Source of the DNA: Candidatus Riflebacteria bacterium HGW-Riflebacteria-1
Lineage (GTDB): Bacteria; Muiribacteriota; Ozemobacteria; Ozemobacterales; Ozemobacteraceae
Direction: 5' to 3'
Assembly (NCBI GenBank): GCA_002839445.1
Contig: PGYB01000006.1
Location: 128,001 to 184,676 of the forward strand
Length of the DNA stretch: 56,676 nt
Made by a program: the position numbers and the translations under genes. The notes under the pieces were generated by a model. The model was not told the origin of the DNA. It saw only the letters and a program-made list of their open reading frames with translations, and made no database searches. Below, piece after piece: positions 5,100 through 54,056 of this stretch. Position 1 is the stretch's first letter, and each line of letters opens with the position of its first letter.

Positions 5100-5235
5100 A
5101 TGGCAAGACTTAAACGCAATGCTCGGTTACGTTGCCATTGTCGCCATGCTCCTTAGTTTAATGGTCAGACAGCGATTTGTCTACGACACGCCAGATGTCC
5201 AAAAATAGCGTTGCCGTTTTTCGGATTCGCCGCGA

Positions 5236-5270: not shown

Positions 5271-5275
5271 ATTCT

Positions 5276-6154: not shown

Positions 6155-6272
6155 ACATTGATTTCCCGGGACTTTTCGCATATTGCCGGCAAAGAAACAG
6201 GCAGACAGGTCATGCCTGTTCAGGCACCGATTGCCTTCAAAAGCCTGTTTCAAGACTCTCTGCAGCGGAGTC

Positions 6273-6752: not shown

Positions 6753-6802
6753 ATAATTTCTTGCTACAAACCTGTCTAAAAAATATTGAGCAATAACTTT
6801 CT

Positions 6803-7561: not shown

Positions 7562-8114
7562 AATACCTGCTCCTAAACTTTTATTTTTTCACTTTGCCAG
7601 GCTACCATAAAAAATAATTTGTTTGCGAGAGCTGACTGAACACGAAAATTACTTATCGTAGAAGTAAACTTTCATATTTGTGGCTGTCGAAAATTCATGG
7701 TAATTTGCCAGCTCCATCCACGATCTCAAGTTAAAGTCCTTTTCAAATACAGCGGTGATTTATTAATTTCAAGGATGAATTGTATATTATATCTCAACAA
7801 TTGTGTGGCGCTAGTATACGATTTCAAAGTTTGAAAATTCTTAAATGCCAAAAAGAACAAACTGGCACCCTTTACAACCTGGCCTGAAAACCTCATAAAT
7901 GGAAAAATTTCTCTCACCCAGGACTAAACATAGCATGATTTATAAAACATGCAAAGATGTTGTTGTCGATGTGCGAGTCGAAGAAGGCTTTGATTACCAA
8001 TTGTCAGAAAACACTACTCTGATAGCATCATATGATGCCATCAGGAAAAACCAGCAGGAATATTACCAGAAACTGGCGATTTCAGATAAAGCCGGCAGAG
8101 TGCGGGCGAAACGC

Positions 8115-15054: not shown

Positions 15055-16340
15055 CGCGAAATCTCCTCCTGCTGCAGCTCAAACGGTTTTCCGACCCACT
15101 TTTCCAGTTCACTGACACTGACAAAGTAATCAGCTTCTGCGCGCAAGGCGGCGACTTTAATTGCGTAAACAGTAGTCATTGCTTCGAGATAGTCGGCAAA
15201 TCTTGTTTTATCTGTCGTAAAAGTGCTTTGCGCGCTATCAGCGGCGCTTTGTGCCTGCGGCAATATAGTCTGCGCGTAAAGCTGATGCATGCGGCGCCGG
15301 TTCGTCATGTTAAACCAGAGCTTAACCAGACTGGCTCTGGTTCTGGTTTTTTCGGCATCTAACAGAGAATCAGCCTCGCGCTGTTTTTCTTTGGCTTCCC
15401 TGATCCGGCTTCGGTTCTTGTTACCCCAGATCGGCAGGTTCATCTGCACAAAGAAACCGTATGAATCTTTGCCTTCGTCCTTGAGATAGACATTGCCAAG
15501 ATCTGGTCGATTGCCGGTAATATTCTGACTGTAGCCGATAACAAAATCAGGCTTGTTGTCAAATCCTGCCAGCCTCAGTTTTGTTGCCGCAATTTTCTTG
15601 GAATTTTCTGCTGCCGAGATTTCGCTTCTGCTCGTTAACGCAAGTTCCAGCAAATCTTCGCTGCTGTATGGTATTTTAAATACAGGAAGCGCGGCGAACC
15701 ATTGCGGTTCAAGCGTCTGCAGGCCAGTCAGTGCTCTTAGTCTGGCTTTTTCAGACTCGAGAAGTTCGGCGTAGTTGATTTGATCGTTAGCCGTTTGCGC
15801 GAGCTGACTCTGCGCCCGCAAAACAGGCAGCAGCGCTACCGAAGCGGTGTTGGCGGTTGCTTCTTTGGCGAGAAATTCTACTATTCTGGCGTTGGCTTCG
15901 GTAACCTCGACCGCTTTGCTTAAATACCATATTTCGGCATAGCTTTTTTTGATCTCAGTAATCAGATCACGCAGTTTTATCTCATAGAGAAACCTGTCGC
16001 TTTCTGACATCTGGTGATTCAAGCGGATCGCAGTTTTCTGCTTGCCCGGATATGGCAGCATCTGGCTGATTGTCAGCATCTGGTTCTGTTCGCCAGTTCT
16101 GGTTTGAACCGGTTCAATATTCTGACGAAAATTCACCACCGGGTCAGCCAGCGCGGTTTTATGAATTACTGCCGCGCTGGTGGCTTTCCAACGATGATAA
16201 GCTGCGCCCAGCTCAGGATTATTCTGCAGACAACTTTCGAGCAGAAGGCTCAGGCCATTGGTTTCCTGACTGTGTAGCGCCATTGGCAGGCAGAAAAGAG
16301 CAACCAGAGTATAAATCAGGTAATTTCGGTAGATCGCCAT
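15051..16340 (-). CDS. Outer-membrane efflux protein, TolC/OEP family (first of two)
   Basis: Signal peptide plus LSLLLESCLQNNPEL... start, characteristic of the OEP family. Two-repeat architecture. Confidence 0.8.
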   Translation of the reverse strand: MAIYRNYLIYTLVALFCLPMALHSQETNGLSLLLESCLQNNPELGAAYHRWKATSAAVIHKTALADPVVNFRQNIEPVQTRTGEQNQMLTISQMLPYPGKQKTAIRLNHQMSESDRFLYEIKLRDLITEIKKSYAEIWYLSKAVEVTEANARIVEFLAKEATANTASVALLPVLRAQSQLAQTANDQINYAELLESEKARLRALTGLQTLEPQWFAALPVFKIPYSSEDLLELALTSRSEISAAENSKKIAATKLRLAGFDNKPDFVIGYSQNITGNRPDLGNVYLKDEGKDSYGFFVQMNLPIWGNKNRSRIREAKEKQREADSLLDAEKTRTRASLVKLWFNMTNRRRMHQLYAQTILPQAQSAADSAQSTFTTDKTRFADYLEAMTTVYAIKVAALRAEADYFVSVSELEKWVGKPFELQQEEISR

Positions 16341-25896: not shown

Positions 25897-27330
25897 TTAA
25901 ACCTTGAGTATCTTTAAGATACCGGACCACAGGCCTTGGAGAAATTCGGTTATCTTCGCGATCAGCTGCTCGATCAATTCTACAGCTGCGGCATTATTTT
26001 CTTCGGTGTCACCAGATTCGTCGTTTTCTTCGACCTCGTCGCCTGAATTGTCACTGGTATCGGCTTCTTCGTCTGAGCTGGTGTTTTCGTCTGTATCAAC
26101 GTCTTCATCGGCCTCTTCTTCTTCGACAGTGGCTTCATCGCTCGGATCTTCATTATCGTTATCATCTTTGTCGTCGTCGTTATCTTCGTTTTTGCCATCG
26201 TTCTTTTCATCATTTTTGTCGTCGTTCTTGCTGGCGTCAGAACTATTTTCGGGCTTATCAGGCTTGTCTTTCTTTACCTTGTGCTTGAAAACGCGTTCGT
26301 ATTTTTTGGCGTATTTTCCGGTTTTTGCGTTATAAGTTCGCACCTTTGCCCGGGCAGGCGTAAGGTCGAGCACGCGCATCCAGGCCGAATTCGTTCCAAT
26401 GGCGGGGGTATGTATGACGGTGACTTTGCCGACCTTATTAGCCGGGTTATGGTATTCATTCGATGCTGGCCCGATGTGCAGATGACCGGATACCCAGAGG
26501 AATACCTGCGGGTTGTTTCTGAGAATTTCTCTTATTTTGCCTGCCGGCTGCGCATTAGAATTGTGCGGCCCAAGTTTTCTTTCTTTTACATAACTGCCCT
26601 CTAATGGCGCGTGGCAGAATATAATGGTTGGCACATCGCGGTTTTTCTTGAGAGTCTCTTTAAGAAAATTCAGCGCGCCAGTTGACAGGCTGACCAGCCA
26701 CTTGCCTTTCAGGTCATCGTTTGGCAGAAACACGAGCAGATGACCGCCGACTTTTCGCGAAAAGCGCAGGCTTTTGAGTTTGAGAGCCTTGCGGAAGCGC
26801 TCAAGCTTGGCCTTGCGCTCAGCCGGAGAAGTGCGCAGTTTCAAGTTATTCTTGCCAAAAAAGTCACGGTAAAGTATGTCGTGGTTGCCAGGAACGGCAA
26901 ATATCGGCACTTTGAAGCGGCTGACGAGCTTTATCATCTCTGAGTATTCAGCTGGCGAGCCGATTTTTCGGCAGAGATCGCCGGTTATGGCGACGGCGTA
27001 TATGCCAGGCAATTCGTTAATAGCCTTAACTGCAGTCTGCAGCATTTTCTGTTTGCTGTCCTGAACGTGCAGGTCGGCGATTACCGCGACTTTTGCCGGT
27101 CTGTCGTCGCTGTCGTAAATTACCTTCTTTGCATTGGCGCTGGCGCTGGCGTTGGCAGCATCAGCCGCGCCGCCCTGTTTGAGCTGGAATTTACCCTCGC
27201 TCGCGAACGGACTATCAAATTCAGCGTAGCCTGCGGAACAGCAGATAACGCTCAAAACCAGCAGAACGAGACCTGTCAGTAAGGCTTTGCGGTTATAAGA
27301 CATAGATCGTCTCCTCAATGCTTTTTTCAA
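25897..27330 (-). CDS. Secreted calcineurin-like metallophosphoesterase with ~120-aa acidic low-complexity C-terminal tail
   Basis: Signal peptide. Metallophosphoesterase motifs: GDLHV.., GDL(C), VPGNHD, GHLH. C-terminus DKNDEKNDGKNEDNDDDKDDNDNEDPSDEATVEEEEADEDVD..., then an amphipathic helix. Confidence 0.75.
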   Translation of the reverse strand: MKKALRRRSMSYNRKALLTGLVLLVLSVICCSAGYAEFDSPFASEGKFQLKQGGAADAANASASANAKKVIYDSDDRPAKVAVIADLHVQDSKQKMLQTAVKAINELPGIYAVAITGDLCRKIGSPAEYSEMIKLVSRFKVPIFAVPGNHDILYRDFFGKNNLKLRTSPAERKAKLERFRKALKLKSLRFSRKVGGHLLVFLPNDDLKGKWLVSLSTGALNFLKETLKKNRDVPTIIFCHAPLEGSYVKERKLGPHNSNAQPAGKIREILRNNPQVFLWVSGHLHIGPASNEYHNPANKVGKVTVIHTPAIGTNSAWMRVLDLTPARAKVRTYNAKTGKYAKKYERVFKHKVKKDKPDKPENSSDASKNDDKNDEKNDGKNEDNDDDKDDNDNEDPSDEATVEEEEADEDVDTDENTSSDEEADTSDNSGDEVEENDESGDTEENNAAAVELIEQLIAKITEFLQGLWSGILKILKV

Positions 27331-28897: not shown

Positions 28898-31800
28898 TTA
28901 CTCAGAGTCAAGAACTGAGATTCCCGGGAGGGCGAGCCTTTCGAGGAACTCAAGACTGGCACCACCACCGGTTGAGACATGGGTCATCTTGTCGGCCACC
29001 CCGGCCAGCTTAACTGCCGAAGCAGAATCGCCACCACCGATGATTACGGTTTTGCCTTTTTCGGCCATTTTAGCGAGTTCAAGCGACAATCTGATCGTGC
29101 CCTCAGAGCCTTCTTTTATCTCAAAGGCTCCGATAGGGCCGTTCCAGAGAACGGTCTTAGCGGTTTCGAGAATGCTCAGCGCGTGATTGATAGATTCTTC
29201 ACCAAGGTCGAACGATTCCCAGCCTTCTTTTATGGTTTTCACGTTGCGCTCAAGGTTGCCGACCTTCAGATTGGCAAAATCGAATTTGTCAGTTGTCACA
29301 AAGTCTCGTGGCAGAACGATCTTGTCGCCGTATTTGTCCATCAGCTTTTTGGCGGTCTCGAGCATTGACTCTTCGACCAGCGATTTCTGAACGTCAAACC
29401 CGGTCGCCTTGAGCAAGGTGTAACCGATGCCGCCGCCGACAATCAGCAGATCTATCTTCTGCAGCAATGATTCAATGATGCCGAGCTTGGTCGAAATTTT
29501 TGAACCGCCGGTAATACCGACAAATGGGCGTTTTGGCTCGCCGACCGCAGCGCCAAGATATTTGAGTTCTTTTTCTACGAGCATTCCGGCAAGTTTCATG
29601 CCGACATGCTTTGTTACTCCGGTAATCGAGGCATGACTGCGATGGCATGTGCCGAAAGCATCGTTGACGTAAATGCCGTCAGAGAGGCCTGCCAGGCCGC
29701 GAGCAAAGAACAGGTCGTTCTCTTTTTCGCCGATCGCGTAGCGCAGGTTTTCGATAATGTTGACCCGGCCTTTGACGATATCTTCTTTTTTGATGAGTAC
29801 GCCTGATGAAGCGATGCTCTTTTCGTGAAAGACGAGATCGGCAAAGTGAGCGCGCAGGTATTCGGCCACAGATTTAAGGCTGTATTCGGTGTAGATTTCT
29901 TCGCGCGACTTGCCTTTTTTCTCCTGTTTGTCGGGCTCGCCGAGATGCGAACAAAGAACAGGCGTGGCGCCCTTTTCCATAAGATATCTGATCGTCGGCA
30001 GAGCGGCGTCAATTCTGGTTGCGTCAGTGATTTTGCCCTTTGCCAGCGGGACATTAAAATCAAGTCTGACCAGAACATTTTTTCCGGCAAGAACATCTTT
30101 GCCAACGCTGGTGACGATACGCTTTTTAAAGCCAGTTTCTTTTTCGAGAACGGCAATTTTTTCGTGAATAATGCGATCGACTTCGCGTGCAGCATCAGTC
30201 GGTGAAGTGAGACCTTTTATCGAATCGAGAATATTGTGGGTTCTGATAAAGCTGTTGTAGAGCGGGACACTGCCGCGATACACGTAACCGCCGTTAGCGT
30301 CGAGCGTTATCAGTTCGCCCTCTTTCAACACCGTGTCAGTGGCACCCTTGAAAGTCACGGTTTTCTGCTTGAGATCGATCACCGCAGATGAACAGCCGAC
30401 CACGCATGGTTTGTTGAGAGTGATCGAAGTAATCGCCGCGTGCGAAGTTCGACCCGGGTAAACGGTGATGATGCCATGCGAATTGTTCATTATGTAGAAG
30501 TCGGAAGGCTTGGTATTCTGGGCGAAATAGATGATATTCTCGCGATGCGCCTTGATTTCTTCGAGCTTTTCGAGAGTCAGCACCAGGGTTCCGCAGGCAA
30601 TGCCGTGATTGATCGGCACGCCGGCAATGAGCGGCGGTTTCCATTCGCGAAAACCGTCATCAGCGCGAGGAACCGAAATAAACGCGTTGGTCGCGCACAT
30701 TCTTTCGATGCGCGCTCTGAACTCATCAAGGCTGATAATACCGTTTTTCATCATATCAACGTCGACGACGAGTTTGGCGTAGGTGCTGATGGTCGCGCGT
30801 CTGGTCTGCAGAAGATAGAGCCGGTCGTCTTCTACCGTGAACTCAATATCGAGCTCGTGCTTGAGTTCCTGTTCGAGAATTCGCTTATCCCTTAGCAGTT
30901 CAGCATTGATTTTTTCGGGTATCGTGGCGATGTTGCGGGTTACAATATTACCCATCACGACATCTTCGCCCTGAGTCATTTCGCGATATTCGCCGAACAT
31001 TTCGTCTTCGCCATTGATCGGGTTTCTCGTAAACAGGACGCCGCTCATGCATCTCGCGTTCAGGTTGCCGAACACCATCTGCTGAATGGTTACCGCAGTG
31101 CCGTAGATAACATCAATAGACAGTTCCTTGAGATAGTCTCTTACAATTTGAGACCGGCTCGACGCAAAAACCAGATCAACACTCTTTACCAGCTGTTCAA
31201 ATGGATCATCGAGAAAGCTGGCACCAAGCTCTTTTTTGACAGCCTGCTCGGCCATCTCGATTGACGCTTCGCTGCCGGGGTCTTTTTCCAGCGCGACAAG
31301 AGAATTGATCAAAAACCGGCGATAAATGCTCGACGCGAAGGCATCGCCATGTTTTGCCGCGAGAGTATCGCGAATATCTGCAGTCAGGCCAACATTCAGA
31401 ATTGTGCACATCGAACCGGGCAACGAAATAGTCGTGCCAGAGCGCACCGAAACCAGAAGAGGATTCGTCGGGCAGCCAAGTTTTTTGCCGGTTTTTGCTT
31501 CAAGCTGTTCGAGGTATTTTTTTATTACAGCTCGAAAACCGGCGCGGTCGGAATTTTCGCCGGCCATCTCACGGCAGATCGGCAAGCCAAGAATAAAAGC
31601 CGGGGGAATATTGACCCCGAGACTGCTCATATCAATTATGCCATTACCTTTGCCGCCAAGATAGGGCCGCACGCTGTCAGGCGTCTTAGTCCACGTGGTG
31701 GCGATAAAGTCATCGTAGTTAGAGTTAACCGCCGGCAGGTCGCTGACGCGATACTTGCCGTAAAGGCTGCTCTCAGCGCTTTTGGTGGCGAGCTCACGGT

Positions 31801-33118
31801 TCAAAAACATCACGATTTTTTCAATGAATTCGCTAACTGCGTGAAACTCTGTCGTTCTGATAAAATTGTTGAAAAAGCGGTCTTTGATCGGCGACAGAGC
31901 CGAAGTCGGCACTTTGTAGGCCTCAAGAACATTGTTGAGCATCTGGCTGAGCCTGAGAAAAATGTTCGTGCGCATGAACTGCTGCAGCTCAATCGCAATA
32001 TTCTCAAACAGGCGTTTGGTTTTGAGAATATCGACGGTTTCCATCGCGTAGATCTCGTTGAGTTCTTTGATGAACTTGTCGCTCTTTTCGGCGAGAATGC
32101 CTTTGATGCTGAGCAGCACGATCAACTCTTTCACCAGGATCATGCAATCCTTGATGTTGCCAAAAGTCACTGTCTCATAATGGTTGTTGGTCAGGTCGTT
32201 TGTGAAGATAAAAACCAGTCGGCCAATGTCGAGATCAAGGTTAAGAAAATCAAACATCTCGATACGCTTTTCTGAATATGACTTTTTGAGCAACATCTTA
32301 AAGCTCGCCAGCCTCTTAACGCAGTCTACGAGGTTGTCGGTATTCTTAATATGCGCTGCGTCACTTATTTTAAGAAATGTCTGCATTTCTTTTTTAAGAA
32401 AACATTTCTCAAACAGATCAAGATGGCTTTCGAGATTATTTTTGACCGCGGTTATATCACCCTTTTCGTAATCCCAGAGGTAGGAAAGCTTTTCTTCAAG
32501 CTCTTCTGCCAGTTCGATAAATTTTCTATCCTCAGATTTCGCGTCAAATCTGCTGGCCAGAGCCATGTAACCGGCTTTAGCGATCGGTTCCGAATTATTG
32601 TTTTTGATCAGCTGCAGGTAAGGCCTGATATATTTTTCTAGAATTCTGGGTGACAGCTTTCTGTGCACCTCTTTGCGCAGATCGCCGGCGAAAGAAAGCA
32701 TCGGGTCGTTGCCGTTGCGGCTTTCTTCAAAATACTCGGCGGCACTGCGAATATCGCCTATCAGGTCACCGCCGCCGCTTCTTATTGGCAGCTTCTTGAG
32801 CACTTCCCGGAAATAATAAATATATTCATTAGAGGGCTCAACCATCGTGTTGAGTGTTTGTTTTGTCTCGTCAAGAACTCTTTGATAAATGGTGTCGATG
32901 TTCTCTTTTAGATCACGGCTGTCGTGTATTTTTTCTTCTTTGTCGAGCAGTCTGATGTTAACGAGAACCGCAGTAATCATTGCCAGTTTCTTTTCCATTG
33001 CGGTTTCTTCGCGCAGAGCGACAATTTTGCCGATTATCTGATCCCAGGTGTTAAGCGGAACCATGCCCTGATCAAACGTGGAAATGCCTGAAAAATCTTC
33101 AATCATACGCCCCTCCAT
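28898..33118 (-). CDS. Multidomain fusion: N-terminal ~450-aa helical domain of unknown function, PPDK-type ATP-grasp nucleotide-binding domain, PEP-utilising phosphohistidine swivel domain, and a complete phosphoglycerate kinase
   Basis: A single uninterrupted 1406-aa ORF. PPDK_N-like segments (YLGGKGNGIIDMSSLGVNIPPAFILG, PLLVSVRSGTTISLPGSMCTILNVGL). A swivel-domain phosphohistidine motif (YPGRTSHAAITSITLNKPCVVGC). A full set of PGK motifs (VLVRLDFNVPL, CSHLGEP, WNGPIGAFE, IIGGGDSASAV, STGGGASLEFLE). No PEP/pyruvate TIM-barrel domain is present. The first ~1.4 kb of the gene (N-terminal domain) is visibly more AT-rich than the rest. Confidence 0.8.
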   Translation of the reverse strand: MEGRMIEDFSGISTFDQGMVPLNTWDQIIGKIVALREETAMEKKLAMITAVLVNIRLLDKEEKIHDSRDLKENIDTIYQRVLDETKQTLNTMVEPSNEYIYYFREVLKKLPIRSGGGDLIGDIRSAAEYFEESRNGNDPMLSFAGDLRKEVHRKLSPRILEKYIRPYLQLIKNNNSEPIAKAGYMALASRFDAKSEDRKFIELAEELEEKLSYLWDYEKGDITAVKNNLESHLDLFEKCFLKKEMQTFLKISDAAHIKNTDNLVDCVKRLASFKMLLKKSYSEKRIEMFDFLNLDLDIGRLVFIFTNDLTNNHYETVTFGNIKDCMILVKELIVLLSIKGILAEKSDKFIKELNEIYAMETVDILKTKRLFENIAIELQQFMRTNIFLRLSQMLNNVLEAYKVPTSALSPIKDRFFNNFIRTTEFHAVSEFIEKIVMFLNRELATKSAESSLYGKYRVSDLPAVNSNYDDFIATTWTKTPDSVRPYLGGKGNGIIDMSSLGVNIPPAFILGLPICREMAGENSDRAGFRAVIKKYLEQLEAKTGKKLGCPTNPLLVSVRSGTTISLPGSMCTILNVGLTADIRDTLAAKHGDAFASSIYRRFLINSLVALEKDPGSEASIEMAEQAVKKELGASFLDDPFEQLVKSVDLVFASSRSQIVRDYLKELSIDVIYGTAVTIQQMVFGNLNARCMSGVLFTRNPINGEDEMFGEYREMTQGEDVVMGNIVTRNIATIPEKINAELLRDKRILEQELKHELDIEFTVEDDRLYLLQTRRATISTYAKLVVDVDMMKNGIISLDEFRARIERMCATNAFISVPRADDGFREWKPPLIAGVPINHGIACGTLVLTLEKLEEIKAHRENIIYFAQNTKPSDFYIMNNSHGIITVYPGRTSHAAITSITLNKPCVVGCSSAVIDLKQKTVTFKGATDTVLKEGELITLDANGGYVYRGSVPLYNSFIRTHNILDSIKGLTSPTDAAREVDRIIHEKIAVLEKETGFKKRIVTSVGKDVLAGKNVLVRLDFNVPLAKGKITDATRIDAALPTIRYLMEKGATPVLCSHLGEPDKQEKKGKSREEIYTEYSLKSVAEYLRAHFADLVFHEKSIASSGVLIKKEDIVKGRVNIIENLRYAIGEKENDLFFARGLAGLSDGIYVNDAFGTCHRSHASITGVTKHVGMKLAGMLVEKELKYLGAAVGEPKRPFVGITGGSKISTKLGIIESLLQKIDLLIVGGGIGYTLLKATGFDVQKSLVEESMLETAKKLMDKYGDKIVLPRDFVTTDKFDFANLKVGNLERNVKTIKEGWESFDLGEESINHALSILETAKTVLWNGPIGAFEIKEGSEGTIRLSLELAKMAEKGKTVIIGGGDSASAVKLAGVADKMTHVSTGGGASLEFLERLALPGISVLDSE

Positions 33119-36188: not shown

Positions 36189-39100
36189 ATGAAGCGCAAA
36201 GAAGCAAAATTTGAACCACTGGCGATAGTCGGAATGAGTTGTCTTTTCCCAAAGGCTCAGAGCCTTGAAGATTACTGGGCCAACATCAAAGAAAAAGTTG
36301 ACGCAATAAGCGAAGTACCGGCGACACATTGGAATTCCGCCGACTACCTCGACAGCGACAAAAAGCGTGCCGATCATGTGTACACTTCTACCGGTGGCTT
36401 TCTTGATCCCGTTGATTTTGTGCCCGGCGATTGGGGAATCGCGCCTTCTGACCTCGACTCAATCGACACTTCGCAACTGCTTAGTCTCGTAGTCGCGCAG
36501 GGCGCTCTCAGTGACGCAGGTTACGGCGCTGCTCGCGATTTTAATCGCGACAACGTCAGTGTTATTCTTGGCCTTACCGGCACTCTTGAGATGGTTGTTC
36601 CGCTTGGCGCGCGTCTCGGGCACCCCATCTGGCGCCGGGCCATGCAACATGCCGGTATTCCGGCAGATATCACTGAAGAAGTTATTACCAACATAGGCAA
36701 AGCCTACGTTGGCTGGCAGGAAAACTCTTTCCCTGGCCTCCTTGGCAACGTTGCTGCCGGACGCATCGCGAATCGCCTTAACCTGGGCGGAACCAACTGC
36801 GTCGTCGATGCTGCCTGCGGCAGTTCGCTGGGCGCCATCAATCATGCCGCTCTCGAACTCTGGACTGGCAAAACCGACATGGTTATAACCGGCGGCGTAG
36901 ACACCTTCAATGATATTTTCATGTATATGTGTTTCTGCAAAACACCGGCCCTGTCACCCACCGGCCACGCCCGTCCTTTCAGTGTTGACAATGATGGCAC
37001 TATTCTTGGCGAGGGAATCGGCATGCTGGTGCTTAAGCGCCTGTCAGATGCTGAGCGAGATGGTGATCGTGTTTACGCCTGTATAAACGCGGTCGGCAGC
37101 TCAAGCGATGGCAAAGGCAAGGCTATTTACGCCCCCAGCCCCGTTGGTCAGAAAAAAGCCCTGATGCGCGCCTACGAAATGGCGGCGATAACGCCGCGCG
37201 ACATCAGCCTTATTGAAGCGCACGGCACCGGCACCAACGCCGGTGACGAAGTAGAAACCACGGCACTGAAAGAGCTCTATGGCATCTCTGAAAATGGTCG
37301 ACCATGGTGCGCCCTTGGCTCAGTCAAGTCACAGATTGGCCATACCAAGGCAGCAGCCGGCTCAGCCGGTATTATAAAAGCCGCTCTTGCTCTTTACCAT
37401 AAGGTTATTCCGCCGACTATCAAAATTTCGCAGCCAGCCAACGGCGTGCGCGGCGAAGAAGTTCCATTTTACATGCCCGATAAAATCAGACCCTGGATTA
37501 CCGATGATGCAAGGCCACGCATAGCTGCTGTCAGCGCCCTCGGATTTGGCGGCAGCAACTTTCACGTAGTCGTATCTGAATACAAGTCAGAGAAGACTGT
37601 TGACGACTGGAAGCGCAGCGTAGAACTGGTTACCATTTCTGGCAAAACTCCGGCTGAGATCGAAAATCGTCTGGCAAGCCTGACCAGTTGCAAAAATGCT
37701 TACCAGCTGCGCAAATACGCCGCTGAATCACGCCGCGACTTTAATGCCGACGATAATTGTCGACTGACTTTCGTAGTCGAAGCAATTCACGATATTGAAA
37801 AGATCGTTACCGATATTACCGGTAATCTGTCCAAGAAAGACGGTTCTTTTAATCTGCCAAATGGCGTGTATTATGCCACTGGCGAACAGAAAGCACCGGT
37901 CGGTGTAATTTTTCCCGGTCAGGGAGCGCAATATCCCGGAATGAGTCTCGACCTCGTCTGCAGCAATCAACAGGCTTTTGCCGCCTTTATCGAAGCTGAC
38001 CAGGCAATTTCGTCTCTCGACGCGCAAAACAATCACCTTGTTGATTACGTGTATCCACGCCCGACCTACGATTCCGAAAAAGACAAACTCAACGATGAAA
38101 AACTGCGGGCAACCGACATCGCGCAGCCGGCAATAGGCGCAATAGCTCTTGGCCAGTATCGCGCGCTTGAAGCGTTCGGCCTGCACGCCGATGGCTTTGC
38201 CGGCCATTCATACGGCGAGCTGGTAAGCCTCTGTGCTGCCGGCGCATTTGATAACGCAACTCTGGCAAAACTCTCGCGCAAACGCGGGCAGTTGATGGCT
38301 CAGGGCAGCGGCGACCGCGGCGGCATGATTGCCGTTGCCGCAGATCGCACCTTTGTTAAAGAACTGATCGCCGAAGAAAATCTCGATCTCGTGGTAGCCA
38401 ATCACAACTCACCACAACAGGTTGTGCTTTCCGGCAAAACCTCGGAAATCGAACGCTCACGCGAAGTTTTTAAAGCGCGCAAACTGCGTGCTACCGTGCT
38501 TAATGTCGCCGGCGCCTTTCACAGCAAATTTGTTTCTGACGCTGCCGAACCGTTCCACGCGTTTCTGGCCAGCGAAAAAATCAGCAAACCCTCGGTGCCG
38601 GTATACGCGAATACAACCGCTACCCCCTACCCTTCAGATACTGAAGAGATTAAAAAGCTTCTCGGCTTTCAACTTGCCAACCAGGTGCGTTTCGTCGAAA
38701 TCATCGAAAAAATGTACGCCGACGGAATAAGAACCTTTATTGAAGCCGGGCCCGGCGGAAAAATCACGGGTCTGATCAAGTCTATTCTTGAGGGCCGCGA
38801 ATGCAACATTATCGCGGTCGATTCATCTGCCGGCAAACGTTCTGGCCTCAATGATCTGGCCAGAGTGCTCGCCCAGCTCAGCGCGATCGGCTATAAACTG
38901 CAGGTCACCCGCTGGCAGGACGGCGAAAACTGGCTGGCACAGCAGCCCCAGAACGTCAAACCGAAACTGACTTTCCCGGTCTGCGGCGCCAATTACAAAT
39001 CGCCGGCACATGTTAAATTTTGCGAGGAACTCGCGAAACCGGCGACAGCAAAGCTGATCACCAGCAAAACACCGCCGGCACCGGCAAGCCAGCCGGCCGC

Positions 39101-42100
39101 TAACCAGTCGAGACCTGCGGCTAATATTGCCCCGGCGCCTCAGCCGCAATCTCAGCAACAATCTCAACCGCAGCAGCCAATCTCTTACGTGGCGCCGGCG
39201 CCTGTTATGCCAGCAGCCACCAACGAAGCTCTCAGACTTTCACGCGAAACCCTTTCGGCCATGCAGCAGCTGCAGCAACAAACTGCTGAACTGCACCGCC
39301 GCTTCCTCGAAGGTCAGGAAACCGCGCAAAGAACCATCATGGCGCTGGTTTCAGGGCAGAGCATGCCTGCCGCCAACGCAGCAACTTTTGCGCAGCCGGC
39401 AGCAATGCCGACTCCAGTGCGCGCTCAGCCAGCCGTTTACGCAACGCAACCAGCCCAGGCACCTGTCATGCCGCAGCCCCAGGCTGCACAGCCGATAGCT
39501 CAGGCAGTCAGGGCAACACCAGTTGCAGCGCCAGTAGCAGCCACACCGGCAGCTCCGGATACCAGCCGCATTCAGCCTGTTCTGCTTGATGTCGTGAGTG
39601 AGAAGACCGGTTATCCTGTTGAAATGCTGAACCTCGACATGGATATGGAAGCTGACCTCGGCATCGACTCGATCAAACGCGTCGAAATCATGTCGGCCAT
39701 GCAGGAACGCCTGCCCGATGCCCCGGTAGTTCAGCCCGACCAGCTTGGCAAACTGCGCACACTTACCCAGATACTTCAGTATCTCGGCAGTAATACCAGC
39801 GCGACAGCGACAAAAGCTCCATCTGCAGCGACTTCTACCGCTGCTTCTGCCGCAACGCCCGATACCAGCCGCATTCAGCCGGTTCTGCTTGATGTCGTGA
39901 GTGAAAAAACCGGTTATCCTGTGGAAATGCTGAACCTCGACATGGATATGGAAGCCGATCTCGGCATTGACTCGATCAAACGCGTCGAAATTATGTCGGC
40001 CATGCAGGAACGCCTGCCTGACGCACCCGTAGTGCAGCCTGATCAGCTTGGCAAGCTGCGCACGCTCACCCAGATACTTCAGTATCTCGGCAGCAACGCA
40101 GGTGCACCAGTCAGCGCCGCGCCGGTTCCGCAATCTGCCAGCAATGCCGGGGCAGCTGCGATCAAGCCTGTTTTGATCGAAATTGTCAGTGAAAAAACCG
40201 GTTACCCCGCCGAAATGCTGAACCTCGACATGGATATGGAAGCTGACCTTGGTATCGACTCGATCAAACGCGTCGAAATCATGTCGGCCATGCAGGAACG
40301 CCTGCCCGACGCGCCGGTAGTGCAGCCTGATCAACTTGGTAAACTGCGCACGCTTGCCCAGATTCTCGAGTATCTTGGTTCTGGCAGCAACAATGCAGCG
40401 CAGCCGACAGCTGCTCATAGCACCCCGGCAGCAATACCCGGAATAAACGGCATATTGCTCGAAGTTATTGCCGACAAAACCGGTTACCCGACTGAAATGC
40501 TCAACCCTGACATGGATATGGAAGCCGACCTCGGAATAGACTCGATCAAGCGCGTCGAAATTCTCTCGGCTTTTCAGGAACGGGTCCCTGAAGCTCCAGT
40601 AGTGCAGCCCGGTGATCTCGGAAAGTTCAGAACCATCTCTCAGATACTTGAGTATCTGAATGCTGGCAATGCCGCACCGGCGGCAGTAGCAGCTGAACCC
40701 GCAAAACCAGCGGTCGCGATTAAACTTGAGCCATTAGCTCTCGACAAGGCGACACCCGAGCATTTTCCCATCAAACGCACAGTCTTGCGGGCATATGAAC
40801 TTGGTGCAAGCACAGCAGCGCCCTTGAAAAACCTTAAAAAAGGCGACAGTCTGATCGTAGTTGATGATGGCTATGGTCTTGCCGAAGCTGTTTGTGAGCA
40901 GTTCGCAGCAGCAGGTTACCAGCCATGCCGAGTTAAGCTTGCTGATGTCGGCGCCGCGAAGTTTCTCAATACTATAAAGGGCTTTGTTCTGATCGCGCCG
41001 CTGCCCGAAAAGGCTGCACACAACCTTTGGGAGAGGTCGTCAGAAGAATGGCTTAAAGACTGTTTCATCGCTGCCCAGAAAGCTGGCATGGCTATTAAAG
41101 CTAATGGCAGCGGCCTGTTCGCAACTGTTTCACGACTTGATGGCGCATTTGGCCTTGAATCGCCGACCCGCACCATAGACCCGGTTCAGGGTGGCCTCGC
41201 CGGACTGAGCAAGACAATTGCCCACGAATGGCCAGAAATGTCAGTGCGCGCTATCGACCTTGATTACCGCTTCAAAGACATGCAAAGTGCTGCCGAAAAA
41301 CTGGTCAGGGAACTGTTGCAGCAGGGACCACTGGAAACCGGCCTTACCCGCTCAGCCCGCTATGGTCTGCGCGAAGTAGAAGAGCAGATAGATGAACTAC
41401 CCGGCTCAGATATGCTGCGCCAGGGTGAAACCGTAGTGGTCACTGGTGGTGCCCGCGGTGTAACAGCTGAAACAGCGCTCGAAATGGCAGTCAAGTATCA
41501 CACCAACATGGTGCTGATCGGCCGTTCGCCTGAGCCAACACCTGAACCAGCCTGGTTGAAGGGTGTCACTGGTGACGCTGCAGTTAAACAGGCAATCCTC
41601 AAGAACAGCAGCAAAAAATTGTCGCCCAAAGAACTCGAAGCTGAGTTCAAATCAACCATGGCTAACCGCGAAGTTCTTCACAACCTCGCGCGCATAAACA
41701 GCGCCGGAGTCAAAGCCTTATATTATTCAGCCGATATTCGCGATGCTGATGAGACTGCCCGCGTAATTGATCGCGCGCGCAGTGAATCAGGTCCAATACG
41801 TGCCCTGATGCATGGCGCAGGCGTATTGCGCGACCGCCGCATCGAAGACAAAACGCGTGATCAGCTTGATGATGTTATCGATACCAAGGTAGCCGGCTTG
41901 CGTAATCTGCTGCTGGCCACAACCAAAGACGACCTCAAAGCGATAATCCTCTTCTCATCTTTCTCCGGGCGCTTCGGTAGAACAGGCCAGGTCGATTACT
42001 CAATGGCCAACGAAGTGCTGAATAAAGCAGCCCACAAATTGCGTATCAACAGACCGGGATGCCGAGTGCTTTCATTTAACTGGGGCCCATGGGACGGTGG

Positions 42101-43130
42101 CATGGTAACGCCTTCTCTGCGCAGCGTCTTCCTTGCCGAGGGAATTGGCCTGATACCATTGCGCGATGGCGCGAGACAGCCAATTATTGAACTTAGTCAG
42201 AACTCTTCTGATGCAGTAGAAATTGGCATTATTGGTGAGATAGCCAGCGTGGAGGCTCCGCCCCCCGGAAAAAAGTTCGATAAGGTTTTTGACTTTGATA
42301 TCAATCTGAAGGAAAACGCCTGGCTCAAAGACCACGTGATCAATGGCGATCCGGTTCTGCCGATGGCAGTAGCCGCCGAACTGCTGGCACAGGCTGCTAC
42401 TTTGCGCAACCCCGGGCTGCTCTTTGCCGGCTATGATGAATTGCGCGTCCTCAAAGGCCTGGTGCTCAAAGAGCATAACCTGCCGGTAACTCTCTACGCT
42501 GCCCGGCCCCGCAAGTGTGAAGAAGGCTTCAAGGTGACCTGTGAGATCAGAAGCCTTATCGGCGCGCGCGAAATCGTGAATATCCGTGCCGAAGTTCTTC
42601 TGGTTGAGCAGCTGTCTACGCGTATACCGGCGGCTGTCAAGGCTGACGCCCATCTGGTATACCCGGATTCAATAAATGAGGCCTATCAGAACCACCTGTT
42701 CCATGGCGAATTTCTCAAAGCATTGCAGACCGTCGAAGGCTGGTCGGAAAACGGTATCGTGGCACAATCTGCCACTGCGCTTGACCCGATCGCGTGGTTC
42801 GCCCGTCCGCCAATGTTGCGCTGGCACACTGATCCGCTGGTGGTCGACGCGGCCTACCAGCTCATGATTCTCTGGACCACTCAGGCCTGCGGCGCACCCT
42901 CACTGCCCAGTTTTGCCCGACACTACCGCCAATACGCCAGCGGTTTTGGAAAAGTGCCGGTTACAGTTTCTGCCCGTACCAGACGCAGCGGCGCCATGAT
43001 GGCCAGTGCCGACATAGATTTTATCGATGCCTCAGGCAATCTTCTGGCCAGAATCGAAGGCTATGAATGCACGATGAATGAAAATCTGCGCAACGCTTTC
43101 ATGCTCAGGTCTGTTGGTGGAGCTGAATAA
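36189..43130 (+). CDS. pfaA: PfaA-like polyunsaturated fatty acid/polyketide synthase subunit: KS - MAT - 4x ACP - KR - PKS-type DH
   Basis: KS active site VVDAACGSSLGAINHAALEL. AT motif GHSYGELVSLCAAG. Four tandem ACPs, each with LGIDSIKRVEI(M/L)SA. KR Rossmann VVVTGGARGVTAE. DH motif HVINGDPVLPMAVAAELL. AGGAAGG RBS lies 6 nt upstream. The stop overlaps the next start (TAATG at 43128-43132). Confidence 0.95.
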   Translation: MKRKEAKFEPLAIVGMSCLFPKAQSLEDYWANIKEKVDAISEVPATHWNSADYLDSDKKRADHVYTSTGGFLDPVDFVPGDWGIAPSDLDSIDTSQLLSLVVAQGALSDAGYGAARDFNRDNVSVILGLTGTLEMVVPLGARLGHPIWRRAMQHAGIPADITEEVITNIGKAYVGWQENSFPGLLGNVAAGRIANRLNLGGTNCVVDAACGSSLGAINHAALELWTGKTDMVITGGVDTFNDIFMYMCFCKTPALSPTGHARPFSVDNDGTILGEGIGMLVLKRLSDAERDGDRVYACINAVGSSSDGKGKAIYAPSPVGQKKALMRAYEMAAITPRDISLIEAHGTGTNAGDEVETTALKELYGISENGRPWCALGSVKSQIGHTKAAAGSAGIIKAALALYHKVIPPTIKISQPANGVRGEEVPFYMPDKIRPWITDDARPRIAAVSALGFGGSNFHVVVSEYKSEKTVDDWKRSVELVTISGKTPAEIENRLASLTSCKNAYQLRKYAAESRRDFNADDNCRLTFVVEAIHDIEKIVTDITGNLSKKDGSFNLPNGVYYATGEQKAPVGVIFPGQGAQYPGMSLDLVCSNQQAFAAFIEADQAISSLDAQNNHLVDYVYPRPTYDSEKDKLNDEKLRATDIAQPAIGAIALGQYRALEAFGLHADGFAGHSYGELVSLCAAGAFDNATLAKLSRKRGQLMAQGSGDRGGMIAVAADRTFVKELIAEENLDLVVANHNSPQQVVLSGKTSEIERSREVFKARKLRATVLNVAGAFHSKFVSDAAEPFHAFLASEKISKPSVPVYANTTATPYPSDTEEIKKLLGFQLANQVRFVEIIEKMYADGIRTFIEAGPGGKITGLIKSILEGRECNIIAVDSSAGKRSGLNDLARVLAQLSAIGYKLQVTRWQDGENWLAQQPQNVKPKLTFPVCGANYKSPAHVKFCEELAKPATAKLITSKTPPAPASQPAANQSRPAANIAPAPQPQSQQQSQPQQPISYVAPAPVMPAATNEALRLSRETLSAMQQLQQQTAELHRRFLEGQETAQRTIMALVSGQSMPAANAATFAQPAAMPTPVRAQPAVYATQPAQAPVMPQPQAAQPIAQAVRATPVAAPVAATPAAPDTSRIQPVLLDVVSEKTGYPVEMLNLDMDMEADLGIDSIKRVEIMSAMQERLPDAPVVQPDQLGKLRTLTQILQYLGSNTSATATKAPSAATSTAASAATPDTSRIQPVLLDVVSEKTGYPVEMLNLDMDMEADLGIDSIKRVEIMSAMQERLPDAPVVQPDQLGKLRTLTQILQYLGSNAGAPVSAAPVPQSASNAGAAAIKPVLIEIVSEKTGYPAEMLNLDMDMEADLGIDSIKRVEIMSAMQERLPDAPVVQPDQLGKLRTLAQILEYLGSGSNNAAQPTAAHSTPAAIPGINGILLEVIADKTGYPTEMLNPDMDMEADLGIDSIKRVEILSAFQERVPEAPVVQPGDLGKFRTISQILEYLNAGNAAPAAVAAEPAKPAVAIKLEPLALDKATPEHFPIKRTVLRAYELGASTAAPLKNLKKGDSLIVVDDGYGLAEAVCEQFAAAGYQPCRVKLADVGAAKFLNTIKGFVLIAPLPEKAAHNLWERSSEEWLKDCFIAAQKAGMAIKANGSGLFATVSRLDGAFGLESPTRTIDPVQGGLAGLSKTIAHEWPEMSVRAIDLDYRFKDMQSAAEKLVRELLQQGPLETGLTRSARYGLREVEEQIDELPGSDMLRQGETVVVTGGARGVTAETALEMAVKYHTNMVLIGRSPEPTPEPAWLKGVTGDAAVKQAILKNSSKKLSPKELEAEFKSTMANREVLHNLARINSAGVKALYYSADIRDADETARVIDRARSESGPIRALMHGAGVLRDRRIEDKTRDQLDDVIDTKVAGLRNLLLATTKDDLKAIILFSSFSGRFGRTGQVDYSMANEVLNKAAHKLRINRPGCRVLSFNWGPWDGGMVTPSLRSVFLAEGIGLIPLRDGARQPIIELSQNSSDAVEIGIIGEIASVEAPPPGKKFDKVFDFDINLKENAWLKDHVINGDPVLPMAVAAELLAQAATLRNPGLLFAGYDELRVLKGLVLKEHNLPVTLYAARPRKCEEGFKVTCEIRSLIGAREIVNIRAEVLLVEQLSTRIPAAVKADAHLVYPDSINEAYQNHLFHGEFLKALQTVEGWSENGIVAQSATALDPIAWFARPPMLRWHTDPLVVDAAYQLMILWTTQACGAPSLPSFARHYRQYASGFGKVPVTVSARTRRSGAMMASADIDFIDASGNLLARIEGYECTMNENLRNAFMLRSVGGAE
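39556..40650 (+). repeat. Four tandem ACP-domain-encoding repeats (~290 nt each; copies 1 and 2 almost identical at DNA level)
   Basis: ccggataccagccgcattcagcc(t/g)gttctgcttgatgtcgtgagtga... recurs at ~39556 and ~39857, with further diverged copies at ~40160 and ~40445. Confidence 0.85.
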
Positions 43131-46100
43131 TGACTGCAAATGCCCTGCCGCGAAAGCCTTTCGCTATAGCAATAACCGGTGTTGGCGGGATGTTCCCGGG
43201 CGCAGACAGTCTCGATGACTTCTGGCAGATGATCGCCGAAGGGCGCAGTGCTGCGGCAGAAGTGCCAGCAGGTCGCTGGCCGGAAGCAGCTGTCAAATAT
43301 CATGACCCACGCCCCGGCACTCCTGATCGCGTATTGTCACCGCGCAATTGCGCGTTAAAGAGCATTCCAAAGAACTATGCTCACTTGCAGATAAGCCCGG
43401 AACTTGTTGAAAAGCTTGATCCGCTGCTGGCAATCAGTCTTCAGGTCGGTCGCGATGCCTTCCTGGATGCAGTTACCACCGGTCTTGACCTTAACCGGGT
43501 TCAGGTAATTCTTGCCAATATCGTGCTGCCAACCGATACGGCCAGCGTCATCACACGCGAAATGCATATATCAGCTCTGCGTGAGCAACTTGGCAAAGGC
43601 CTGGTCAGTTCTAAAAGCAGCGAAGTTCACCCGCTTAACCGTCTGGCGGCAGAACTCCCGGCAACTTTGCTCGCTTCGGCTCTTGGCCTCGGTGGCGGCG
43701 GCTATACTCTTGACGCTGCCTGCGCCTCTTCTCTTTACGCAATAAAACTTGCCTGCGAAGAACTCACGGCGCGGCGTGCTGACGCAGTATTGACTGGCGG
43801 TGTGTCGCGGCCGTCATCGCAGTTCACCCAGATGGGCTTTTCGCAACTGCACGCCTTGTCAAAGACCGGCATCTGCCGACCTTTCGACCAGGGCGCTGAT
43901 GGTCTGGTAGTCGGCGAAGGCGCCGGCATGTTCCTGCTCAAACGTCTGGCTGACGCCGAAGCAGCCGGAGACAAGATTTACGCGGTAATCCGTGGTATCG
44001 GCCTGGCCAACGACGTTGGCGGCAGCCTGCTCGCCCCCGACACCGAAGGCCAGATGCGCGCCATGACCCAGGCATATCAACAGGCAGGTTGGCAGCCGCG
44101 CGACGTTCAACTTATTGAATGCCACGGCACCGGCACACCCAAGGGTGATGCCATAGAATTCAGCAGCCTGCATCAGCTCTGGCAGAATGAAAAATCCTCT
44201 GCCGCGAAATGTGTTATCGGCTCGGTCAAGTCAAATGTTGGCCATCTTCTCACCGGAGCCGGAGCCGCCGGCCTGATGAAACTCCTGATGGCACTCAAAA
44301 ACCGGCAACTGCCGCCAACAGCCAATTTTAACCAGGCTGACCCGGCAATCGCCATAGAACAGAGCCACTTTGAAATACTTAAACAACCTCGCGCCTGGGA
44401 GCCAGCCCCTGAACAACCGCGCCGCTGCGCGCTCAGCGCTTTCGGCTTTGGCGGCATCGATGGCCATGTTCTGCTCGAAGAATATTGCAATAACTCGAAA
44501 AAGCCTGCTGCGAAAGCAAAACAAGCGGAAGCCGCACCCGAGCCGCTGCCTGAAATCGCCATAGTAGCCATAGAAACCAGAGCCGGCACCCTGCCCGATC
44601 TCAATGCGTTTCAAAAAGCCGTTATAAATTGTGAGCCGGCGATCAGAGATATTCCTGACAACCGCCACCCCATTACCTCAAACGCCGCCTGGCTTAAAAA
44701 AGGAGCCTATCTCGATGAGATCGCGATAAGACCCGGCGAATTCAAAATCAGCCCGAAAGAGATTCCCGAAATTCTTCCGCAGCAGCTGCTGATGCTGCAA
44801 ACCGCCGATCATGCTCTGCGCTCAATCAAACGCACCCCGGAAGAAACCCGCAACTGGGGCGTCTATATGGGCATAAATCTCGATTTTGCCAGCACCAGCT
44901 TCGCCAGCCGCTGGGCGATCGAAAAAGATGCTCGAGCCGCCGGGTTTGAAGGCATAGCCATGGCTGATCTCGCTGATGCCATCACGCCTCCACTCAACAA
45001 CCCGCGCACCGTTGGCGCGCTCGGTGGAATTGTTGCCAGCCGCATTGCCCGCGAATACAATATAGGCGGCCCATCGCACACTTTTTCAAGTGGCGAGAAC
45101 TCTGGCCTTTCGGCTCTCGAAGCCGGAACTCGCGCGCTGCAACGTTACGAAATTTCGGCAGCACTGGTCGGAGCAGTCGATCTTGCCGGCGATCTGCGCA
45201 ACCTTAACTGCATCGACGCCCTCAGACCCTTCTCGCGCAAAAATGGTTCGGTAGCATTTGACCAGAGCGCTGACGGGGCATTCCCGGGCGAAGGCGCTGT
45301 AGCTCTTGTTATTAAACGCAAAGAAGATGCCCTGCGCGATGGCAACCGCATAATCGCGCTGGTTAAGGGTATTGGCCGTTCGACGCAAACCAGTCCTGGT
45401 GACCGCGATTCAGCAATAGAGGCCTACGGCCGCGCCATGCACACCGCCTGGAACGAGTCAGGGCTGAATATTGCAGGCATGGGCCTGCTCGAAGTTCACG
45501 GCAGCGGCAACCCTGACGAAGATAGAATCGAAGCGGCAGCTCTCGCCAAGACTCTGCCTGGCAAAGATCAGTCGGCACAAAACCGCTTTAAAAGCAACGA
45601 TCAGCTTTGCGCCCTCTCGGCCAGTAAAATGGTCGTCGGCCACACTGGCGCAGCCGCCGGCCTCTTCTCTCTGGCCAAAGCCGCTGTGTGTCTGTATCAA
45701 CAGGTTCTGCCGCGTTACCCCGGCATGCAGAACCCTATCCCTGATATGCAAAACAGGGAAGACTTCTTCTTTACGCCTGCTGAACCGCAATTCTGGTTGC
45801 GCAACCGCATTCAGGGCGAGCGAACAGCCGGAATAAGCAGTTTCACCATCGACGGCAACTTCTATCACGTAGTTCTGCAGGCACTCGAAAACGAGGATCA
45901 GTTGCCTGTGGAAGTTCAGATTGACAACGAGCGTGCTCGCTGCTTTCCTGGCGGCGCGCCCGAAGAAAGTCTTTTTATCGTCGGTGGCATCAATGCCTGC
46001 GATACTCGCGAACGTCTGGCTGCTCTAAGAAACATGGCAGACCGCCCGATTCGGCAGTTGGCCGCTGAATACTGGCAGCAATACGCCCCCGGAGACTACG

Positions 46101-50386: not shown

Positions 50387-50419
50387 GTTTGCTATCCTGC
50401 CCAAACCACAACGAATATT

Positions 50420-51460: not shown

Positions 51461-51461
51461 T

Positions 51462-52355: not shown

Positions 52356-52372
52356 ACCCGGGAGCACATACC

Positions 52373-54043: not shown

Positions 54044-54056
54044 CAGGAGAGAATCG

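Follow-up and report, generated by a model that had tools for sequence, protein, structure and literature searches.

The window analysed in this work, i.e., the whole 56,676-nucleotide stretch of contig PGYB01000006.1 from Candidatus Riflebacteria bacterium HGW-Riflebacteria-1, contains on its minus strand a gene for a single protein in which a helical domain of ~460 residues, an ATP-grasp domain of the pyruvate phosphate dikinase (PPDK) type, a phosphohistidine swivel domain and a complete phosphoglycerate kinase (PGK) follow one another in this order. All four parts lie in one open reading frame (ORF), which spans 28898..33118 and encodes 1406 residues as the longest ORF (Table 1). According to the ORF listing, it is uninterrupted by any stop or frame break; a frameshift or stop that would split it into separate genes, named earlier as one finding that would refute the fusion, was looked for in the window ORF and none was found. 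The PGK and dikinase motifs that the original prediction had quoted from the translation were all recovered, e.g., RTSHAA at 30434-30451 and SHLGEP at 29933-29950.

The first ATG of the ORF (33118) overlaps a GGAGGGG Shine–Dalgarno sequence, which is sited 5 nt before the second ATG (33106), and the upstream sequence reads AGATGGAGGGGCGTATGATT. Because of this position of the Shine–Dalgarno sequence, the true start is probably the ATG at 33106, which would yield a product of 1402 residues. The gene call of the database protein P0001, which is 100% identical to the ORF product, also begins at the second Met. Residue numbers of the window protein are given below in the 1406-residue frame.

Table 1. 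Features of the dikinase–PGK fusion gene, in coordinates of the window
Feature	Positions	Strand	Description
Whole ORF	28898..33118	-	1406 residues in the longest form; stop codon 28898-28900; probable start ATG 33106-33104, giving 1402 residues
Shine–Dalgarno-like GGAGGGG	33110..33116	-	5 nt upstream of ATG 33106; direct sequence reading
N-terminal all-alpha domain	31724..33118	-	residues 1 to ~465; AlphaFold2 fold; motif, e.g., FAGDLRKEVHR(K/R)LSP
PPDK-type ATP-grasp (nucleotide-binding) domain	30629..31723	-	residues 466-830; Pfam, NCBIfam, alignment to PPDK structures
Phosphohistidine swivel domain (PEP-utilizers)	30239..30628	-	residues 831-960; motif PGRTSHAAI
His893 codon, predicted phospho-carrier	30440..30442	-	equivalent to His455 of C. 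symbiosum PPDK; preceded by Thr891-Ser892
Linker between swivel domain and PGK	30104..30238	-	~45 residues; least conserved segment, 13-75% identity; position of the PPDK linker to the PEP/pyruvate domain
PGK N-lobe (3-phosphoglycerate site)	29534..30103	-	residues 1006-1195
PGK C-lobe (nucleotide site)	28901..29533	-	residues 1196-1406

Domain searches with Pfam and NCBIfam confirmed the predicted combination of PPDK_N, swivel domain and PGK without the phosphoenolpyruvate (PEP)/pyruvate-binding TIM barrel. In the Pfam scan, PPDK_N matched two stretches of the window protein (E 1e-23), the PEP-utilizers swivel domain matched residues 860-944 (E 1.5e-16) and PGK matched residues 1010-1393 over profile positions 6-377 of 379 (E 5e-120; 401 bits against a cut-off of 27), while PEP-utilizers_C (PF02896) was not found at E values up to 0.1. 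The alignment to the NCBIfam PPDK model TIGR01828 ends at profile position 514 of 865, with a score of 334 bits against a cut-off of 843, which leaves the window protein below the equivalog threshold. The PEP synthase model TIGR01418 scored 60-61 bits against a cut-off of 740, weak NCBIfam matches to PigC/RedH are located in the ATP-grasp region, and no NCBIfam model attains its cut-off on the window protein.

The architecture is shared by a family of proteins drawn from NCBI, JGI, ENA and Logan assemblies. Of the 59 protein clusters closest to the window protein (39-100% identity), 58 contain the three Pfam domains at full length (1308-1455 residues); P0031 (1047 residues), the one left, also has all three but is a fragment truncated at its N-terminus. 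A profile of the N-terminal domain, searched against one genome per GTDB species, returned 67 loci, all of them in metagenome-assembled genomes (MAGs). Those in Candidatus Riflebacteria, Rifleibacterium amylolyticum and Ozemobacteraceae show 85% identity to the window over the N-terminal domain, which places the window in this group; further loci are found in Elusimicrobia, a Wallbacteria MAG, many Spirochaetota (Treponemataceae, Rectinema) and two 'Myxococcia' MAGs. By tblastn with five segments (helical, ATP-grasp, swivel, PGK N-lobe and PGK C-lobe), the segments are continuous and in order at all sufficiently long loci of the 67. With this conservation across clusters and species-level loci, the claim of a real fused gene rather than split genes was upheld. 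All members come from MAGs, and some taxon labels are doubtful: L031, labelled Erysipelotrichia, encodes a protein of the kind seen in the Riflebacteria clade, and L039, labelled Propionivibrio, one of the Spirochaetota kind; both are likely mis-binned contigs.

The dikinase half was mapped by residue-level HMMER alignment to the PPDK structures of C. symbiosum and maize. K490, R559, G568, D757, E759, Q771 and R773 of the window protein correspond to K22, R92, G101, D321, E323, Q335 and R337 of C. symbiosum PPDK, and T891, S892 and H893 correspond to T453, S454 and H455. In the family alignment, which comprises 60 sequences, i.e., the window protein and its 59 closest protein clusters (identity 39-100%), the equivalents of K22, R92, G101, E323, Q335, R337, T453, S454 and H455 are invariant, and D757, the equivalent of D321, is kept in 59 of the sequences. 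Since the catalytic residues are invariant, the dikinase half should still autophosphorylate its His from ATP. This part of the protein, which shares ~35% identity with PPDKs, is far nearer to PPDK than to PEP synthase (334 vs. 60 bits), suggesting that its co-substrate is orthophosphate/pyrophosphate (Pi/PPi) rather than water.

In the PGK half, the substrate site is retained in an altered form. Binding of 3-phosphoglycerate (3PG) to PGK involves D23, N25, R38, H62, R65, R122 and R170 (human PGK1 numbering), and R65 is one of three Arg residues that hold the 3-phosphate of 3PG (PMC7729029). Human PGK1 served as the reference in the alignment, its numbering having been compared with the residues that this paper names. 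Six of the seven 3PG-binding residues are present in the window protein, D1020, N1022, R1035, H1058, R1126 and R1160 being equivalent to D23, N25, R38, H62, R122 and R170, and R65 is replaced by Glu1061 (29936-29938). Thus, the whole PGK motif set claimed for the translation is indeed found, but it is not fully canonical, as SHLGEP has Glu at the R65 position. This position is Asp or Glu in all 60 family members and never Arg, compared with Arg in 109 and Lys in one of the 110 closest canonical PGKs. The equivalents of D23, N25, H62, R122 and R170 are kept in practically all 60 sequences and that of R38 in 57, and every fusion carries a family-specific insertion of 8-9 residues with S-R-E-E right after the SHLG(D/E)P loop.

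The PGK domain is ~50% identical to bacterial PGKs (E 1e-93 to solved PGK structures), and a search with it returned family fragments first, followed by canonical PGKs at ~50% identity. When N-lobe sequences were placed in a neighbour-joining tree, all 60 fusion PGKs grouped together as a single clade, with 32 canonical PGKs outside it. Because the fusion PGKs are monophyletic and have the R65 change and the insertion in common, the fusion is concluded to have arisen once, with an early remodelling of the 3PG site. A family-specific loss of the R65-D218 domain-closure salt bridge was also considered and was rejected, since position 218 is G, S or T in most of the closest bacterial PGKs too.

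The nucleotide site of PGK varies between the clades of the family, which are designated A (the window protein and P0001-31), B (P0032-35), B2 (P0036-37) and C (P0038-59, 22 clusters, Spirochaetota). The nucleotide/Mg site (K215, K219, N336, E343, GGGD(T/S)) is complete in the window protein, as K1207, K1211, N1326, E1333 and G1361-G-G-D1364, and in clade A, where G237/238 is intact as well, but not in clades B and C. Clade B is intermediate, with the Mg-binding Asp374 and the TGGG loop lost. In clade C, K215 is replaced by E/D, K219 by Q/H and N336 by S/A, GGGDT is changed to C-S-E-E-(E/D) and TGGG to (T/S)GPR, the adenine-pocket segment with G312/L313 is deleted, and the site shows a deletion of ~45 residues. 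The degenerate lobe of clade C was nevertheless modelled as an alpha/beta lobe with a predicted local distance difference test score (pLDDT) of 80-96 and matched PGK structures over its full length in Foldseek (E 1e-17), in a model that derives from a shallow alignment and whose N-lobe loops are of low confidence.

The same divergence is reflected in the mean within-clade identities. These amount in clade A to 69% for the helical domain, 68% for the ATP-grasp domain, 75% for the swivel domain, 75% for the PGK N-lobe and 82% for the PGK C-lobe, which makes the C-lobe the most conserved region of the entire protein, and in clade C to 67%, 61%, 75%, 62% and 44%, respectively. Family-wide, selection appears to keep the ATP-loading module, the phospho-carrier His and a 3PG-type site, and not the ATP site of PGK. 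Such a pattern is expected if phospho-His can replace ATP as the phosphoryl donor/acceptor. In the window clade, the classical PGK reaction is probably kept as well, because the ADP/ATP site is complete there; the strong constraint on this site would be explained if the genomes have no other pgk. In one Treponemataceae MAG (L065), a clade C fusion gene is followed immediately by a complete canonical pgk with the motifs SHLGRP, GGKKISTK, GGGDS and STGGG (14093-15379, + strand), so that a housekeeping PGK is available there apart from the fused copy.

The N-terminal part, i.e., residues 1 to ~465, is a new domain family, with no Pfam match in any of 28 members and no PDB match in a profile search of sequences. 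AlphaFold2, run on a 28-sequence alignment, predicted an all-alpha domain of 21 helices (pLDDT 86, predicted template modelling score 0.82). This helical domain is found in every member of the fusion family and has 59 invariant positions, many of them basic; the invariant basic residues are R68, R104, K108, R113, R124, R134, R148, K149, H152, R153, R300, R421 and H426. A full HMMER scan of 1.84 billion representatives gave only 37 hits to the domain, and those that are not part of the fusion family or its fragments are proteins of ~900-1150 residues. Seven of the nine relatives of this size that were scanned consist of the helical domain, PPDK_N and the swivel domain and end right after the latter, i.e., they have no PGK, and in the other two, which look truncated, PPDK_N alone was detected.

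The helical domains of the fusions and of these PGK-less relatives were aligned by hhalign over 415 columns (probability 99.9%, E 1e-32) and have in common the core motif DP..FA..LR.EVH(R/S)(K/R).SP, and two word-indexed searches with the alignment of the PGK-less helical domains gave no matches. The window protein fits the definition of a helical-domain dikinase, namely an all-alpha domain of ~450 residues with DP..(F/L)A..(L/I)R.E(V/I)H(R/S/Q)(K/R).S, followed by PPDK_N and the swivel domain. Because the helical domain is present in all members and homologous in the PGK-less proteins, it is concluded to be the older partner of the dikinase module, to which PGK was added later. No pgk was found near four PGK-less relatives whose gene contexts were read. 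At one locus (L074), the PGK-less relative P0141 (1090 residues) lies divergently beside a canonical PPDK of 924 residues (3047-5821, - strand, and 6220-9492, + strand).

The low GC content of the N-terminal part (0.447 vs. 0.505-0.523 in the rest of the gene) had been taken as a hint of modular acquisition, a view that did not survive closer analysis. GC at the third codon position is the same across the domains (0.566 in the N-terminal part vs. 0.553-0.597 elsewhere in the gene), and the deficit sits in codon position 2 (0.284 vs. 0.37-0.41). The low GC is thus due to the amino-acid composition, and a foreign origin of the N-terminal domain on the basis of GC was rejected. The claim that the fused PGK is the only obvious acceptor of the phosphoryl group is weakened, as the helical domain, which is conserved and strongly basic, also qualifies as a candidate. 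The role of this domain is perhaps regulation, oligomerisation or provision of a further ligand site.

For the proposal that phosphotransfer to 3PG runs via phospho-His, comparative support was gained from the invariance of His893 and of the ATP-grasp residues in the 60 sequences, from the near-invariance of the 3PG-site residues and from the existence of a clade without the PGK nucleotide site, the chemistry itself being what we infer. The reading preferred here, which is held tentatively and falls somewhat short of probable, is that the protein would be a swivel-His dikinase with PGK as the acceptor, which would catalyse ATP + Pi (or H2O) + 3PG ⇌ AMP + PPi (or Pi) + 1,3-bisphosphoglycerate (1,3-BPG) via His893~P. 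In the first step, the ATP-grasp domain would bind ATP together with Pi, the latter because the module derives from the PPDK lineage, and would phosphorylate the swivel His893, whereupon AMP and PPi leave (Pi if water is the co-substrate). The swivel domain would then move via flexible linkers to the 3PG site of the PGK N-lobe and swap the phosphoryl group with the C1 carboxylate. The net reaction, ATP + Pi + 3PG ⇌ AMP + PPi + 1,3-BPG, is estimated to be near equilibrium, like that of PPDK, because the free energies of acyl-phosphate hydrolysis (~ -49 kJ/mol) and of ATP cleavage to AMP and PPi (~ -46 kJ/mol) are similar. In the glycolytic direction, ATP would be formed from AMP and PPi at the PGK step, which would suit PPi-economising anaerobes. 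Several anaerobes are known to use PPDK glycolytically (PMC8100219). We infer, besides the phosphotransfer between His893 and 3PG/1,3-BPG, the physiological direction of the reaction.

Several observations favour this proposed route. The order of ATP-grasp domain, swivel domain, linker and PGK mirrors that of PPDK, with PF02896 absent; clade C loses the ATP site of PGK yet keeps the 3PG site and the His; all fusions share the remodelling beside the 3PG site; and swivel-His dikinases elsewhere, such as rifampin phosphotransferase, HpeHI and phenylphosphate synthase, recruited unrelated acceptor domains (PMC12167813). More speculatively, a Mg site for the transfer might be formed in clade C by the conserved acidic cluster found there instead of the phosphate-binding loops. 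A more far-reaching version combines three elements, namely an AMP/PPi-linked PGK step via His893~P, a relay in clade A over bound 3PG/1,3-BPG with the net reaction AMP + PPi ⇌ ADP + Pi, and an N-terminal new fold that defines a wider branch of swivel-His dikinases. As a whole, this combination is rather doubtful; if it is true, the clade A relay would be a pyrophosphate:AMP phosphotransferase made of glycolytic parts.

Several points weigh against PGK as the acceptor of the phospho-His. Because the PGK nucleotide site is the strongest-conserved part of clade A, ATP/ADP-dependent PGK chemistry clearly matters in the window clade, and transfer through the His may play a secondary or a regulatory part there. 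PGK is also not the sole conceivable acceptor, because the PGK-less relatives carry the same helical, ATP-grasp and swivel module; the module can evidently function on its own, with an acceptor that may be sited in the helical domain or supplied in trans. The change of R65 to D/E adds a negative charge in the 3-phosphate patch, so that the ligand might not be 3PG. Furthermore, the basis of the proposal is sequence comparison among members that are all MAG-derived, and the gene neighbourhood offers no pathway clue.

The alternative that survives best, although it is regarded as unlikely, is that two independent enzymes are fused, an ordinary ATP-dependent PGK and a dikinase whose acceptor site is on the helical domain, so that the phospho-His would never meet 3PG. 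The acceptor would then be, e.g., a PEP/pyruvate site other than the TIM barrel or another phosphorylated metabolite, and the fusion would only co-localise or co-regulate the two activities. This explanation accounts for the existence of the helical, ATP-grasp and swivel module without PGK in the proteins of ~900-1150 residues, one of which adjoins a canonical PPDK, and for the complete and highly conserved PGK of the window clade. The invariant Arg, Lys and His residues of the helical domain, several of which are common to the PGK-less relatives, are likewise as expected of an anion-binding or active site, and PGK fusions with non-consecutive partners are known, e.g., the Thermotoga PGK-TIM described in a PGK review (PMC7729029). 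However, clades B and C lose the nucleotide site and keep the near-invariant 3PG residues; an independent PGK would be dead in these clades, with no reason to keep its substrate site. It is also difficult to reconcile with independent enzymes that PGK occupies the exact acceptor position of the PPDK architecture and that free PGKs lack the remodelling of the 3PG site common to all fusion PGKs.

A regulatory device, which is considered quite improbable, would consist of a PGK-like part that senses 3PG/1,3-BPG and gates the dikinase, or of a phospho-His swivel that switches PGK activity. In the latter form, the swivel domain would act like the additional PEP-utilizer-like domain found at the C-terminus of certain bacterial pyruvate kinases, with the ATP-grasp domain reading the AMP/ATP/PPi status; the swivel region in fact has a weak NCBIfam match to the pyruvate-kinase model PRK06354, which carries such a domain, and the regulatory-type Thr before the His is conserved (PMC12167813). 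Clade C, which keeps the 3PG site without the catalytic Lys215 and the nucleotide site, would fit a ligand-sensing pseudoenzyme, and kinetoplastids are documented to have multidomain PGKs that carry sensor domains and are 'dead' (PMC7729029). However, a full catalytic ATP-grasp domain and a His that are invariant over more than 60% sequence divergence would make an expensive sensor. The Pfam scan revealed no output domain such as DNA-binding, kinase or GGDEF, and 57 of 60 members retain R38, the residue in contact with the carboxylate and with the phosphoryl group being transferred.

The weakest alternative, a chimeric assembly or a read-through of neighbouring pps-like and pgk genes by sequencing error, is practically negligible and was refuted by the continuous architecture in 59 protein clusters from independent assemblies and in every long-enough locus among the 67 GTDB species-representative loci, and by the DNA of the one NCBI record that seemed to favour it (P0155, of which just the last 394 residues are annotated as 'phosphoglycerate kinase'), as this DNA holds an intact ORF of 1415 residues (L030, 2391-6635, + strand) and the short call results from an internal start. 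The apparent stand-alone Riflebacteria PGK represented by P0155 was accordingly rejected as an annotation artefact.

The fusion is a swivel-His dikinase in kind, with an undescribed domain, and it differs from each of the known systems that it resembles. PPDK (EC 2.7.9.1; TIGR01828; 1KBL, 1DIK, 1VBG) has homologous ATP-grasp and swivel domains (~35% identity), the same ATP/Pi-site residues and T-S-H phospho-carrier motif, and the same N-to-C order of nucleotide domain, swivel domain, linker and acceptor domain. In contrast to PPDK, the window protein has PGK in place of the TIM barrel (PF02896) and an additional N-terminal helical domain of ~460 residues. PGK (EC 2.7.2.3; PF00162; 1PHP, 1VPE, 2WZB) is matched over the full length of the domain, with all nucleotide-site residues present in the window protein; however, the fused PGK makes up the last 400 of 1400 residues, has Glu for R65 and an insertion of 8-9 residues, and belongs to a family with sister clades that have no nucleotide site.

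Among the small-molecule dikinases, i.e., rifampin phosphotransferase, HpeHI/CreHI/phenylphosphate synthase and the PigC/HapC-type ligases, an ATP-grasp domain likewise loads a swivelling His that serves an unrelated substrate domain, and in its workings the fusion most resembles these enzymes. They differ from the fusion in domain order and acceptor fold, and their acceptor domains are not homologous to its PGK. The acceptor candidate of the fusion is a kinase domain of central metabolism and its product would be an acyl phosphate, and no substrate domain homologous to the rifampin-binding domain was found between the ATP-grasp and swivel domains of the window protein. The short PPDK-like proteins of PRK05878 (534-residue profile) also combine an ATP-grasp with a swivel domain, and this is the best-covering NCBIfam model (residues 480-937, E 4e-99). 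However, the window protein scores 333 bits against its cut-off of 456, and the short proteins (~530 residues) have neither the helical domain nor PGK. PRK05878-type short proteins are not known to have an assigned function.

Multidomain PGKs, such as the Thermotoga PGK-TIM and the kinetoplastid PAS-PGK and PGK-CNB, are also fusions of PGK, and some are 'dead' at one substrate site (PMC7729029). The kinetoplastid dead PGKs lose 3PG-binding residues, whereas in the present family it is the nucleotide site that is lost, and there is no PPDK_N or swivel partner among the PGK fusions found in that review (PMC7729029). In full-text literature searches, no description of a fusion between a PPDK-like dikinase and PGK was found, and no PDB entry with this combination exists, in agreement with the earlier statement that the combination was not recognised as a described enzyme.

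Glycolysis has two steps of substrate-level phosphorylation, of which PGK catalyses one, by a mechanism that is considered invariant, with a direct in-line transfer between ADP and 1,3-BPG. Confirmation of the proposed chemistry would add a new reaction to central metabolism, and a phosphohistidine-routed, AMP/PPi-coupled PGK step would be the counterpart of what PPDK is to pyruvate kinase. ATP-yield estimates would then change for the PPi-economising anaerobes (Riflebacteria, Elusimicrobia, Treponemataceae) of digesters, aquifers and guts. The presence of intact and lost PGK ATP sites in different clades provides a natural experiment, and a domain family of ~450 residues that accompanies PPDK-like modules is now defined. 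Annotation of the fusion proteins as 'phosphoglycerate kinase' or 'pyruvate orthophosphate dikinase' leads to misleading metabolic reconstructions.

In the window, the fusion gene appears solitary. Upstream, 190 bp separate it from a penicillin-amidase-like gene; downstream, a gene of the Na+/dicarboxylate symporter family converges on it, and no other glycolytic gene is found in the window. The neighbourhoods were compared by clustering all ORFs of at least 100 residues from 69 loci (68 related loci and the window neighbourhood); no neighbour gene is conserved across clades in this clustering or in the contexts of two family members and four PGK-less relatives that were read. A transporter of the major facilitator superfamily (~410 residues) adjoins the fusion gene in seven loci of clades A and C, in varying orientation (L003, L011, L030, L031, L037, L042, L051), which could be chance or a weak functional link.

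Other gene groups of the window were noted as well. A polyketide-synthase-type cluster occupies 36189-55079 (+ strand) and contains two giant ORFs of 2313 and 2418 residues, the former of which matches ketoacyl-synt, Acyl_transf_1, PP-binding, KR and PS-DH; these ORFs are followed by a KAS-III-like gene, an alpha/beta hydrolase, an AMP-binding enzyme and a reductase of the 3beta-HSD/epimerase family. A Cus-like heavy-metal efflux operon of the resistance-nodulation-division type lies at 8115-16340 (- strand) and encodes an AcrB-family pump of 1241 residues, a membrane-fusion protein of 624 residues with heavy-metal-binding domains and two outer-membrane efflux proteins. At 25897-27330 (- strand), a metallophosphoesterase with a signal-like N-terminus carries a long, extremely acidic, D/E/N-rich low-complexity C-terminal tail, and genes for an extracytoplasmic-function sigma factor, a zf-HC2 anti-sigma factor and a DUF3106 protein stand in series at 2434-5099 (+ strand).

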